A stretch of DNA of 64,000 nucleotides, from assembly GCA_000004985.1 (NCBI GenBank), contig GG738871.1, one strand, 5' to 3'. The notes under the pieces are model-generated. The model was not told where the DNA came from, did not search any database, and saw nothing but the letters and a program-made list of their open reading frames with translations. The first letter of the stretch is position 1, and each line of letters begins with the position of its first letter. A program made the translations under genes and the position numbers. Below are positions 5,308 to 56,950 of this stretch, piece by piece. This DNA is from Naegleria gruberi. Lineage: Eukaryota.

Positions 5308-6555
5308 TTATTTCCCTTCTTCTATGTTTCTAAAAATGCAACATTTAACAATCATGGAATAGAGTGCTACTTTGTGTGCGTGTTTGATATCTGAATTTGT
5401 TGTTTCCACATAGAGTGCACCATCCATAATATCAAAGGCCACTTTCTGAGCTTGCTCCTTATTAACACGTCTTCCATTGATGAGATCTGTCTTATTTCCA
5501 ATAAGGACCACTTCACTATGGTGAGCGTCATAATTCTTTAATTCATTATACCACAATGGGATGTGTTCGAAACTAGTCTCATTGGTCAAATCGAATAATA
5601 GAAAGACAACATGAACATTTCGGTAATGCATCCTAGTTAGAGGAGTAAATCTCTCTGGACCATAAACATCCCATATCTGAAAGTCATATCTTTTATCCTG
5701 TGAAAATTGATAAGTCTTACTGAAGAAATTTGATCCAATCGTTGGAATATCCACATATTTTCCAAAAGTCTTATTGAAAATGATACAATTAATAAAAGAT
5801 GTCTTTCCTGAAAAACTGTCTCCACTCATGGAACATTTGAAAGAGTACTGATCATTTCCAAACTTTTGAGGCGTATAAGGATATAGACTTTTCGAAGGAT
5901 TTGAACTCTGTGTTGATTGACCACTCGGTGCTCCAAAATATGAACCCAAAAATTGAAATATTCCTTTAAAAACTGAATTTCCACATGTAGAGCTTGATTT
6001 CTCTTCCTTCTTTGTTTCAACATTCTCCTTCTTTTCATTCGAATGCTCGTCCTTCTTCTTCAAATCTGAAAAGTTTGAAAAGTATCGAGTGATCAATTCC
6101 AATTCACTCATCAATTGTTTTACAATTTTTTCATCCAAATCACCATTAACATTGGCCAAGTCAATAACTCCAGGAATATCCAACTTCTCTAAATTAGCTT
6201 CAATCCATCGATCAGCCACTTGATAAATGAATTTTCTCAACATTGTTTTTCTGAATTTTCTATTAGAATGGAGAAAATCATCATCATCATGATCGGAATT
6301 AATTTTCTCTACTATTTCATTATGATCTGATTTAGTGGATGATTTAAAGGGTGAGGAATTGGATGATTCATATGAATTGAAAGTAAATTCTAGTTCATAT
6401 TGTTTTGTAATAATTGGCAAGATTAACCTTCGCCAAGATTTACAAACATTTGAGTGGGAAAATATTAAATCTACAGATGGCAGATAGGAAAAAATTTCGT
6501 TATTAATTTCCTCTGGTAAAATTTCAAAGAGGTTATGTACTTTGTTAATGATCAT
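5308..6555 (-). CDS. F-box domain protein fused to a C-terminal Ras-superfamily (Rab/Ras-like) GTPase domain
   Basis: The N-terminal LPEEINNEIFSYLPSVDLIFSHSNVCKSWRRLI is an F-box. The C-terminus carries G1 GDSFSGKT, a G3-like WDVYGPE (canonical DTAGQE with Gln replaced by Pro) and G4 GNKTD. Confidence 0.65.
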   Translation of the reverse strand: MIINKVHNLFEILPEEINNEIFSYLPSVDLIFSHSNVCKSWRRLILPIITKQYELEFTFNSYESSNSSPFKSSTKSDHNEIVEKINSDHDDDDFLHSNRKFRKTMLRKFIYQVADRWIEANLEKLDIPGVIDLANVNGDLDEKIVKQLMSELELITRYFSNFSDLKKKDEHSNEKKENVETKKEEKSSSTCGNSVFKGIFQFLGSYFGAPSGQSTQSSNPSKSLYPYTPQKFGNDQYSFKCSMSGDSFSGKTSFINCIIFNKTFGKYVDIPTIGSNFFSKTYQFSQDKRYDFQIWDVYGPERFTPLTRMHYRNVHVVFLLFDLTNETSFEHIPLWYNELKNYDAHHSEVVLIGNKTDLINGRRVNKEQAQKVAFDIMDGALYVETTNSDIKHAHKVALYSMIVKCCIFRNIEEGK

Positions 6556-51502: not shown

Positions 51503-53008
51503 ATGAACAATTCAAAATCTTCAATGATTTCATTCGGGGCAGCAATTGTCTCGATGATAGCAGTCACATTGATGATGCTATCAATAGCCTCTGCCTTCTC
51601 GGTAAAGAGTGATATCGATTATCGTACAGTATTGTCTGATTATGTGAAGGGAAATAATCAATACTTTAAATATCAATTGAAGGGTACTTATGATAATGAT
51701 TATGGAAAATTCATAATCTTCAACATGACCAGTGTAAAGTGGTTGGATGAGAAGGAGCTTGGGAATAGCTGCTATTGGTTCCACTTGGTCGAAATTGCCA
51801 TTCCAAAGAAGATTAAGCAACAATCAAATGTGTTGATGTTGGTTGCTGGTGGATCTCAAAAGGAGATTGCACCAACAAGTGATAATGAATTAATGAAAAT
51901 GGCTGCCAGTACTCAATCTATTGTTGCATCTATTCATCAAATTCCAAATCAACCTTTGGTTTTCAATTCTGATCCAACAAGACAACAAAGAATTGAAGAT
52001 GAAATTCTTGCCTATGCTTGGGCAAAATTCATGCAAAACACAACTCAAACTGGGTGGATTCCAAGATTACCTATGGTTAAGGCAACCATGTTGGCAATGG
52101 ATGTTGTTCAAGAATATTTGAGAACTACCTTATCAATTAATGTAATGAATTTCCATGTTGCAGGAGCAAGTAAGAGAGGTTGGACCACTAATTTGGTAGG
52201 TGTTGTTGATAAGAGAGTTAGAAGTATCATGCCAATCGTTATTCCAGTAATGAAAACTAGAGATATTCTTGGTAAGTTAACAAAACTATATTAGTTAATG
52301 ACCCTATTGTAAAATATAGAACATTCTTACAATTCGCTTTGCACATGGCCAGAAGCAATGGGTGATTATGTTAAAGAAGGTATCACTACAAAATTAAACT
52401 CTAAAGAATTCCATCAACTGACAACAGTTATAGATCCTTTCGAATATAATGATATTTTGGCAACAATCAACAAGTATTTCATTTATGCCACTGGTGATCA
52501 ATTCTTCCTTTGCGATCTTAGTCAATTCTCTTATCCATACCTTAAGGGAGGTGACCAACTCAAACATTTAAGATATGTTCCAAATACTGATCACTCTTTG
52601 GATGGATCTGATGCCCAAGTTTCTGCTTTAGCTTATTACTTTAGTTTGGCCAACAAGCTTCCACTTCCAGTTTACAATTTTACAGCAGTTTCTGATAGGA
52701 CTGGCGTTTCTGTTGGTGTCAAGGTAATGAGCCCGATTCCACCATCTGCTGTCCTGTTGTGGGAAGCTCGTGCTCCACAAAGAGATTTCAGACTTCAAAC
52801 CATTGGAAAAGCATGGAAACCAAGACCACTCCAATTGTCTAAAGATGGTAGTGTTTCAGTTCACCTGGATAATCCAGCCACTGGCTATTATGCTGCCTTT
52901 GTTGAATTAACATTTGATTATTTAGGAACACAAATTCCTCTCAAGTTTACAACATCAGTTTATGTTCTTCCTGATATTTTGCCATGTAAATACCATAATA
53001 AAGTTTAA
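51503..53008 (+). CDS. PhoPQ-activated pathogenicity-related protein (PqaA) family secreted protein. Exons 51503..52270 and 52353..53008.
   Basis: Signal peptide MNNSKSSMISFGAAIVSMIAVTLMMLSIASA. The intron is GTAAGT...CAG in phase 1 and joins ...VMKTRDIL-E-AMGDYVKEGITT. GASKRGW is a serine-hydrolase-like motif. The overall length and order resemble the bacterial/dictyostelid PhoPQ-related family. This is from memory and unverified. Confidence 0.55.
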
Positions 53009-53195: not shown

Positions 53196-53726
53196 ATGCA
53201 TAGCTCCAAACTCATTATTGCTGTCTTATTGATGGTTATTGCCTCATGTGTTGTCGTTTCTTCTAGATCTCTCCCATACAGAGGACAAAGCATTGTTGAC
53301 TTTATTAACTCTCTCCAACTCGATGAGGAAAATGAAGAACTCGCTGACACCTTCTCTTTTGATTCAGGTGATGATATTGCTAGTGAAGCTATTAGAAGAT
53401 ATGGACGTGTTGCTACTGCAGGTGGTCATTGTGCTCGTGCTGTTAGAGAATCTATTGAAGGTGCTTTGGACATTTCCTTGCAAAGAACTGAAAGTGCTAA
53501 GAATTATGGACCTTCCTTGTTGGCTGCTGGTTTCCAAGTTGTTTCTGGACCTGCTCAAGATGGTGATGTTGCCATTTTCCAAGCTATCCCAAACCATCCT
53601 CATGGCCACATTCAAATCAAAACACCAATTGGTTGGGTTTCTGATTTCAAGCAAAGAGATCAATATCCAGGTCCAAGCTACAGAAGTATCAGTGCTCCAT
53701 TCAAATTGTACAGATATACTGATTAA
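53196..53726 (+). CDS. Secreted CHAP-domain (Cys/His amidohydrolase/peptidase)-like protein, a candidate bacteriolytic enzyme
   Basis: 176 aa. Signal peptide MHSSKLIIAVLLMVIASCVVVSS. A candidate catalytic Cys in ATAGGHCARAVRESI and His in NHPHGHIQIKT, with the spacing and flanking Gly/hydrophobic pattern of CHAP/NlpC-like amidases. Confidence 0.5.
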   Translation: MHSSKLIIAVLLMVIASCVVVSSRSLPYRGQSIVDFINSLQLDEENEELADTFSFDSGDDIASEAIRRYGRVATAGGHCARAVRESIEGALDISLQRTESAKNYGPSLLAAGFQVVSGPAQDGDVAIFQAIPNHPHGHIQIKTPIGWVSDFKQRDQYPGPSYRSISAPFKLYRYTD

Positions 53727-53866
53727 TTGGCCACTTATCACTTGCAACTTGTAGTGTGCTGAATAAACACATTCTCAGTGTTTTTTAACATGCAAGAAAG
53801 ACTTTCAAACATTTATTTATTTACACAAAGATATCACATTGGCCTAGACATTATATTTTACAATAA

Positions 53867-55660: not shown

Positions 55661-56950
55661 TTACACATTTCTTGCATTTTCGAGAGAGGAAAATAATTGT
55701 TCCAAATCATCAGGATTTGGTAATGAATAAGAATCCAACATTTCAGAAATTTGAGCACTCCTAGAAGATGAAGGGAAAATTCTACTAGTATACGTTGACT
55801 GATTATCGGCTTCCAAATAATTATTATCATTATTATTTACAGAAGATGATGGAGGTGGTGTTTGGTGTCTATTTTCATGTAATCCAATTGAGTGAATATT
55901 TGGATACACGTTTTGGTGAACTACTGGAGTTGTGAAAAAAGAGGGTTGAGGTGGCAAGACTGGTTGAAATTCTGGTGAATTGAAACTCAATCCAAATGGT
56001 GTTGACTGAGTTGGAAACTTGTTTCCACTGTTGTGTGAATTGAATGGAGCGACAGCATTAAGCGGGATGTATGGTGAAGTGTTTCTCATGGCCACTATCT
56101 GTTGCATAAATGGATTATGAAAAGATGGATTTGGTTGAGTAGAGGAATTATTTTCACCGCTAACCTTTGTAAAGGTAGTTTGAGGGGAACAGTTTTGAAA
56201 GGATATTTGTGAAGAGGGAATGGTTTGACCAAATGAGATGAGTTGTGAATTGTTCAAACCTGGTGATTTCACTTGTTGAAACATTAAATAACCAGAGTTG
56301 ACAGTGGATTGTGAGGAATTTGAGGAAGTAGAGTTGTGACTCATTTCACTGTTTGTTGAAGAGGTAGAACTTTGAGAGCAGGCTGAGGAAATTGAAGGAG
56401 AGGAAACATTGTTGAAAGGATTGTTACCCGAATACAATTGTGAAGGAGTGGATGGTGAAATTCGTGTGTGAGGAGATGTGCTAGTGGATGATGAACAAGT
56501 TGACTGATTGGTATTTGTGTTGGAATTACATGTTCGAGGAAGAATTTTCATGTTGAGTGAGTTTTTTCTTTGCTCTTGCAATGTTTTCAATCTTTCTTCT
56601 CTTGTGGTCTTTCGTTTAATTTGTTCAACACATTGAATTCCATTCTTGATGCATCTAGAGCAAGACCTTTGTTCACCACAAGATCTATCACATCTTGCAT
56701 GTGCTTTATGACAAGCAACACAAGCCACTGTACAATGATGATGACAATAATTTCAGTTCATGAGGATTAAAAAGGAATTAGCAAAAATCTTACCTTTTTT
56801 ACTCTTCTTTTTTTTAATACCATTGTGGTCTGTGTTTGTATGAGGAGATGAGTCATTAGATTCACTACTATTTGATTTATCATCACGACGATTTGCAACA
56901 CCCTTATGATCAACACCTTGAGAGTGATTGGTGTGGATATTAGAGTGCAT
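55661..56950 (-). CDS. Zn(II)2Cys6 binuclear-cluster DNA-binding protein with a Ser/Thr/Asn/Pro-rich tail. Exons 56803..56950 and 55661..56726.
   Basis: The exon-2 start reads CVACHKAHARCDRSCGEQRSCSRCIKNGIQC, which is C-x2-C-x6-C-x9-C-x2-C-x6-C. Exon 1 is basic (KKKSKK) and ends at a GTAAGA donor in phase 1. The intron is 76 nt. Confidence 0.65.

Follow-up and report, generated by a model that had tools for sequence, protein, structure and literature searches.

A probable Tae3-derived domesticated amidase effector with a predicted signal peptide in Naegleria gruberi

We consider it likely that a small gene of the amoeba Naegleria gruberi encodes a Tae3-derived domesticated amidase effector (Dae3 type), which acts on bacterial peptidoglycan. 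The gene lies in an AT-rich (34% GC) stretch of 64,000 nucleotides, referred to here as the window, and a tblastn search found one copy only within it. Its product is 100% identical to the N. gruberi protein XP_002676554.1 (also EFC43810.1, NAEGRDRAFT_68243 and UniProt D2VH15), the database label of which is still just ‘predicted protein’.

The gene and its place in the Naegleria genome

The preliminary description of this DNA had singled out a 176-aa ORF with the motifs GGHCARAV and HPHGHIQIKT, preceded by a D/E-rich linker, and had assumed that the host was a phagotrophic eukaryote. These points were all borne out. The ORF runs from ATG to TAA and contains both motifs (residues 76-83 and 134-143, respectively), in which Cys79 and His138 are located; the linker corresponds to residues 24-56, with 8 D/E against 2 K/R; and the host, N. 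gruberi, is such an organism. Two overlapping ORFs, 53239-53754 on the plus strand and 53364-53747 on the minus strand, are read as shadow frames of the amidase coding sequence. The features of the locus, in window coordinates, are the following:

53196..53726, plus strand: coding sequence of the Tae3-family amidase (likely Dae3 type), ATG to TAA, single exon, 176 aa
53196..53264, plus strand: residues 1-23, MHSSKLIIAVLLMVIASCVVVSS, predicted cleavable signal peptide (hydropathy; modelled helix 3-21)
53265..53363, plus strand: residues 24-56, acidic low-confidence linker or possible pro-region (composition, pLDDT)
53364..53723, plus strand: residues 57-176, Tae3-like papain-fold peptidoglycan amidase domain (phmmer, BLASTP, AlphaFold, Foldseek)
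53430..53432, plus strand: TGT codon of Cys79, predicted catalytic nucleophile, equivalent to Tae3 Cys23 (alignments, conservation)
53607..53609, plus strand: CAC codon of His138, predicted catalytic base, equivalent to Tae3 His81 (alignments, conservation)
53640..53642, plus strand: TCT codon of Ser149, probable third member of the triad, aligned with Tae3 Ser92 (conservation, spacing)
53762..53767, plus strand: AATAAA, candidate polyadenylation signal, 36 nt past the stop codon (read from sequence)

The gene is a resident of the N. gruberi genome and truly eukaryotic. It is carried on a 417-kb contig, its GC3 (26%) compares with 25-33% in its neighbours, and the intergenic gaps on its two sides measure just 140-190 bp. 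The gene upstream (51503-53008, plus strand) encodes a PhoPQ_related protein (PF10142; E = 9e-61 and 3.5e-28 for its two exons) and has a 48-nt GT-AG intron at 52272-52319; once this intron is excised, the reading frame is restored and the Pfam match becomes continuous. Downstream, at a distance of 140 bp, a gene for a zf-Nse (SMC5/6 Nse2-type) protein lies convergently on the minus strand. A tblastn search of the window with a Burkholderia homologue of Tai3, the immunity partner of Tae3, found no such gene (best E = 0.33).

Bacterial contamination or mis-assembly is the explanation that this setting bears upon most directly. It could draw on the fact that the nearest characterised relatives of the protein are bacterial, and that some homologues carrying eukaryotic labels, those of Chlamydomonas incerta and Hyaloraphidium, are bacterial-looking in length and leaderless. 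It would nonetheless have to accommodate eukaryotic flanking genes at such short distances, one of them with an intron, as well as a host-like GC3, an N-terminal extension that is never seen in the ~120-aa bacterial proteins, the absence of an adjacent Tai3, and homologues in four heterolobosean assemblies, one of which has an intron in the domain itself. We regard contamination as extremely improbable and rejected it on genomic context. A T6SS is, to our knowledge, not to be expected in a eukaryote, and the resident gene departs from the features of T6SS delivery, in that a eukaryotic-type leader (as judged from hydropathy) stands in place of the leaderless form and the neighbours are eukaryotic. 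The predicted leader and these neighbours thus argue for a descendant of an effector rather than for a T6SS effector as such.

Some further genes of the window are of interest in their own right. The PhoPQ_related product, a homologue of the PhoPQ-activated pathogenicity-related protein, has a hydrophobic N-terminus; it is a second protein of bacterial type, and probably a secreted one, encoded beside the Tae3-derived gene. On the minus strand, the ORF at 49608-50336 matches the C-terminal half of the Porphyromonas-type peptidyl-arginine deiminase/agmatine deiminase family (PF04371, E = 1.3e-33), the distribution of which is mainly bacterial. The ORF at 55661-56728, also on the minus strand, weakly resembles the fungal Zn(2)-Cys(6) binuclear cluster domain (PF00172, E = 1.5e-5; 25.4 bits, cut-off 21), which is unusual for a heterolobosean.

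Tae3 kinship, fold and active site

The domain was traced to Tae3 by two sequence comparisons. A phmmer search of the PDB sequences aligned query residues 75-174 with residues 19-118 of 4hz9_A (E = 2.8e-28), and BLASTP against full-length Tae3 of Ralstonia pickettii gave 56% identity over 99 residues (E = 8e-35); according to the literature and the Foldseek description, 4HZ9 and 4HZB are the Tae3-Tai3 effector-immunity complex of R. pickettii. A profile search yielded 231 database homologues at E <= 1e-3, most of which are bacterial proteins of ~120 aa from Ralstonia, Burkholderia, Pantoea, Hafnia, Citrobacter, Salmonella bongori and others. Fusion to PAAR or Rhs domains, or a VgrG label, is seen in some homologues and marks the family as one of T6SS effectors, and in Burkholderia multivorans a DUF3828 gene located 8 nt downstream of the homologue matches Tai3 (4hz9_B, E = 4.6e-53).

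The preliminary description had labelled the protein as CHAP/NlpC-P60 and its kin as mainly bacterial or phage enzymes. At the superfamily level this label holds, but as a family assignment it gives way to Tae3: against Pfam CHAP (PF05257) the N. gruberi protein scores 14.4 bits (E = 0.057), well short of the gathering threshold of 26 bits, and an NCBIfam search with it returned no match. Among 120 family members, CHAP is matched by 56 and NLPC_P60 by 25 (E <= 0.01; best CHAP E, 2.1e-12), which, on profile matches, places the Tae3 family at the edge of the CHAP/NlpC-P60 clan and makes the earlier superfamily assignment right. The family is one of T6SS effectors; a tblastn search against phage genomes gave no match, and this result together with the match to Tae3 led us to reject a phage lysin origin. 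As a separate observation, homologues P0137, P0140, P0163, P0191, P0209 and P0211, which come from metagenomic and other sources, have precomputed Pfam matches to PG_binding_1 (PF01471), phage lysozyme (PF00959) or OmpA (PF00691), so that the Tae3-type domain occurs in cell-wall proteins of several domains as well as in small leaderless effectors.

An AlphaFold model was built, with no templates, from a 120-sequence alignment that contained Tae3-family sequences, and reached a mean pLDDT of 88.6, with about 97-98 over residues 57-176; from the single sequence the pLDDT was 38. A papain-like fold with a Cys-His dyad had been set beforehand as the test of the assignment, and this is what the alignment-based model presents. 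In a Foldseek search of the PDB its top matches were 4hz9_A and 4hzb_A, and it superimposes on Tae3 with a TM score of 0.93 (normalised by target) and an rmsd of 1.1 Å over 119 columns, at 49% identity. The next matches in the PDB were phage CHAP lysins, Tse1/Tae1 and NlpC/P60 enzymes at an rmsd of 5-6 Å. A fold search of BFVD gave five matches with E <= 0.001, all of them phage CHAP-type domains of 17-28% identity and none a eukaryotic-virus protein.

The catalytic dyad of Tae3 is Cys23/His81 (PMC11796386), and the enzyme has been described as having a Cys-His-Ser (CHS) triad (PMC10318531). Cys79 and His138 of the N. gruberi protein align with Cys23 and His81, and the 1.1 Å superposition suggests that the two residues are juxtaposed as they are in Tae3. 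Across 120 homologues His138 is invariant, while Cys79 and Ser149 are each conserved in 90% or more; Ser149 lies at His+11, the same spacing as in Tae3, and on the strength of spacing and conservation it is the probable triad serine. The retention of these residues speaks to the idea that the protein is a catalytically inactive sensor or lectin which merely binds peptidoglycan. Such a fate has a published parallel, in that one of two Nematostella Dae4 paralogues is without the catalytic cysteine (bioRxiv 2020.04.10.036376; 2021.05.13.443009), but with Cys79, His138 and Ser149 kept both in N. gruberi and in the Naegleria and Willaertia homologues, we hold it to be very unlikely here and treat the protein as a putative active enzyme.

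Comparison with characterised proteins delimits the assignment further. With R. pickettii Tae3 (4HZ9/4HZB) the Naegleria protein shares the same catalytic domain, at 49-56% identity, and equivalent Cys-His(-Ser) positions; whereas Tae3 has 119 aa, is leaderless and T6SS-delivered and is encoded beside Tai3, the Naegleria protein has a predicted signal peptide and an acidic linker of ~33 residues, no Tai3 in the window and a eukaryotic genome around it. The CHAP/NlpC-P60 hydrolases (PF05257, PF00877; endolysins Ly7917, Lys2972 and LysK) are second-tier structural matches, alike in papain-like fold and Cys-His chemistry but only 10-25% identical at an rmsd of 5-6 Å, and the Naegleria protein stays below the CHAP cut-off and is without a cell-wall-binding domain. 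The NlpC/P60 proteins of Trichomonas vaginalis (6BIM and 6BIQ, Foldseek ranks 10 and 26) are likewise protist proteins with a peptidoglycan-hydrolase-type fold, yet at 16% identity and an rmsd of 5-6 Å they fall into another family, NlpC/P60 proper. The Trichomonas proteins were acquired from bacteria and carry extra domains.

The N-terminal extension and the heterolobosean relatives

Bacterial homologues are 119-120 aa long, start ~20 residues ahead of the catalytic Cys and have no counterpart of the leader or linker. The N-terminus of the N. gruberi protein, MHSSK-LIIAVLLMVIASCVVV-SSRS, consists of a short polar stretch with Lys5, a 16-residue hydrophobic core (L6-V21) in which Kyte-Doolittle 11-residue means reach 3.5, and then SSRS, an arrangement that fits signal-peptide anatomy. 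The leader was predicted from hydropathy and the n/h/c-region anatomy. Hydrophobic N-termini are also found in Willaertia, N. lovaniensis and several metagenomic relatives, where they have the form of clear signal peptides, and in N. fowleri one is encoded just upstream of the annotated start.

It is conceivable that the hydrophobic segment acts as a signal anchor and is never cleaved, or that it goes unused, so that the enzyme would be membrane-tethered or cytosolic. The dependence of the call on hydropathy leaves some room for this reading, as do the leaderless homologues of Chlamydomonas and Hyaloraphidium and the annotated N. fowleri models, which are without a typical leader. We nevertheless think it distinctly unlikely, given that the core spans just ~16 residues and is followed by the small residues SSRS, as is typical of cleaved signal peptides, that similar leaders recur in Willaertia, N. 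lovaniensis and metagenomic relatives, and that N. fowleri has a canonical leader ORF upstream; a cleavable signal peptide is the prediction we retain.

The N. fowleri homologues call for a comment on annotation, since the 5' ends of their gene models look erroneous. At locus L001 (VFQX01000053.1) an ORF from 5898 (5898-6230) specifies MMSKKLSVALLVLLLACFACIAVHA, a canonical signal peptide, and then a linker rich in RGG/YGGRRQS, in a frame that is 1 nt off the annotated frame of P0002; the acidic N-terminus annotated for P0002 may be a wrong-frame reading or may reflect an assembly indel. At locus L004 the same signal-peptide ORF is inverted on the minus strand (5874-5966), and the homologue encoded there, P0004, carries Asp150->Gly (N. 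gruberi numbering). Rearrangement or decay of a paralogue could account for this locus, as could a fault in the assembly.

Between signal peptide and domain lies the segment that sets the heterolobosean proteins apart from each other, and it cannot be aligned among the species. In N. gruberi the linker (residues 24-56) has a pI of 4.05 and a pLDDT of 51-66 in the alignment-based model, and a pI of 5.3 makes the mature protein acidic as a whole, unlike many lysins, which are basic. In N. lovaniensis the linker is Ser/Thr-rich. That of the Willaertia magna homologue (P0006; L003 6001-6693) is strongly cationic and Pro/Arg/His-rich (RPSFRPRPRPVHRPRPIVHRPRPVHRPVHRP), with a pI of 12, and is reminiscent of proline-rich antimicrobial peptides.

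The catalytic domain, by comparison, is 55-67% identical among heterolobosean species. The homologues of N. fowleri, N. lovaniensis and W. magna are carried on contigs of 377-668 kb; N. fowleri has two loci, each flanked by GH31 and adh_short genes, and no synteny is conserved among the loci of N. gruberi, N. fowleri, N. lovaniensis and Willaertia. For the domains of N. gruberi, N. fowleri and Willaertia, Nei-Gojobori estimates of dN/dS range from ~0.24 to 0.43, values that are rough because dS (0.8-1.5) is near saturation but that are consistent with purifying selection on the enzyme domain. The N. lovaniensis homologue (P0036; L002 6001-6775) is divergent (48% identity by BLASTP) and has an intron inside the catalytic domain, after ...VGDVQVYG; it may have been acquired separately, or may be an orthologue that evolves fast.

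In a neighbour-joining tree of the domain (100 bootstraps), N. gruberi groups with N. fowleri, Willaertia and metagenomic sequences, other sequences that bear signal peptides or eukaryotic labels (a bdelloid rotifer, Chlamydomonas incerta) fall near this group, and N. lovaniensis P0036 and Hyaloraphidium are placed elsewhere, all with support of 0-29%. A single heterolobosean clade is weakly supported (9-29%), and at these values the tree resolves neither a single heterolobosean nor a single eukaryotic clade. Outside the Heterolobosea, three Tae3-family homologues (P0035, P0072 and P0012) carry the labels of Chlamydomonas incerta (120 aa), Hyaloraphidium curvatum (133 aa) and the bdelloid rotifer Didymodactylos carnosus (182 aa). 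Those of Chlamydomonas and Hyaloraphidium are of bacterial length and leaderless, and could be recent transfers or assembly contaminants. A third profile search, started from the eukaryote-like sequences, returned no further named eukaryotes.

Domesticated amidases and the bacterivorous amoeba

Published work shows that tae genes have moved into eukaryotes several times and that the resulting Dae proteins are without a specialised secretion apparatus. Dae2 of the tick Ixodes scapularis has a predicted N-terminal signal peptide, and both Dae2 and Dae4 of Nematostella vectensis are secreted enzymes with antibacterial activity that kill Gram-positive bacteria; Dae2 is unable to cross the Gram-negative outer membrane unaided, and its specificity has diverged from that of Tae2 (bioRxiv 2020.04.10.036376; 2021.05.13.443009). 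The N. gruberi protein fits this pattern point by point: as in Dae2 and Dae4, a bacterial tae gene appears to have been acquired, a leader (here a predicted one) has been gained, an immunity gene is not found nearby, the catalytic residues are kept, and an antibacterial role is to be presumed. Unlike these proteins, which derive from Tae2 and Tae4 and reside in animals, the Naegleria protein derives from Tae3 and resides in a heterolobosean amoeba, in which its role is maybe prey digestion as much as immunity.

It is on this pattern that we infer secretory or endolysosomal targeting and DD-endopeptidase action. The ancestor would have been a leaderless bacterial effector of ~119 aa, injected by a T6SS into the periplasm of a rival and neutralised in its producer by the adjacent Tai3. 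The amoeba version keeps the whole catalytic domain, with Cys79, His138 and Ser149 intact, to which a predicted eukaryotic signal peptide and an acidic linker have been added. On entering the secretory pathway the protein would lose its signal peptide and, as an enzyme of 15-17 kDa, would reach phagosomes or lysosomes, or the medium, where it could act as a DD-endopeptidase and cleave peptidoglycan cross-links of bacterial prey or competitors; such cleavage of the wall may help the bacterivorous amoeba to kill or digest its prey or to control the surrounding bacteria. The preliminary description had proposed a ‘lysosomal or secreted bactericidal enzyme’, a role which we likewise infer from the predicted signal peptide and the published Dae proteins, and secretion, destination, bond specificity and biological role are all put forward here in that sense. 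Because Dae2 fails to cross the Gram-negative outer membrane unaided, killing from the outside would presumably require help, or else the targets would be restricted to bacteria within phagosomes and to Gram-positive species.

A Tae3 origin could also have been followed by repurposing, so that the enzyme would process a substrate other than the peptidoglycan of prey, such as another gamma-glutamyl or D-amino-acid amide, the amoeba's own cyst-wall or surface proteins, or peptidoglycan fragments that serve signalling or nutrition instead of killing. Non-peptidoglycan amidases do occur in the CHAP/NlpC-P60 superfamily, Gsp amidase being among the distant structural matches, and both the diverged specificity of Dae2 and the wide variation of the linker across species would be in keeping with a change of this sort. 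Yet 49-56% identity to Tae3, a near-identical backbone and the retained active-site blocks leave little room for a new substrate class, and Naegleria feeds on bacteria while having no peptidoglycan of its own. We therefore judge repurposing to be unlikely, and bacterial peptidoglycan remains the substrate that we favour.

A related thought concerns the fast-evolving linker, which might be a functional module instead of a passive spacer, serving either as a removable pro-peptide that masks the enzyme or, in its cationic versions, as an arm that permeabilises the outer membrane and so replaces the T6SS. This is speculative, and we would put it forward as a minor possibility only, but if true, the cationic linker would be the way in which a eukaryote overcomes the obstacle to delivery that has been described for Dae2.

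Domesticated amidase effectors are a kind already documented in eukaryotes, and the gene is not conceptually new. As a class, Dae proteins were reportedly found by Chou et al. in 2015 to have acquired secretion signals, and their survey, which is said to cover tae2-, tae3- and tae4-derived genes, may list N. gruberi. Since the protein has been in GenBank from 2010 and BLAST would pick it up with ease, that survey probably found the gene, which may well be catalogued already. In the open literature we found no paper linking Naegleria to Tae, Dae or CHAP, no mention of the accession numbers of the gene, and nothing that joins domesticated amidases with amoebae.

What the gene offers is a clean, well-supported case in which a bacterivorous protist has captured an interbacterial weapon and refitted it with a (predicted) eukaryotic secretion signal. 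With it the Dae pattern, known from Dae2 in ticks and Dae4 in a sea anemone, reaches the Tae3 lineage and the Heterolobosea, which include the pathogen N. fowleri. With a domain of 120 aa and a single Cys, this small enzyme may also prove convenient for studies of how amoebae break down the cell walls of their prey.
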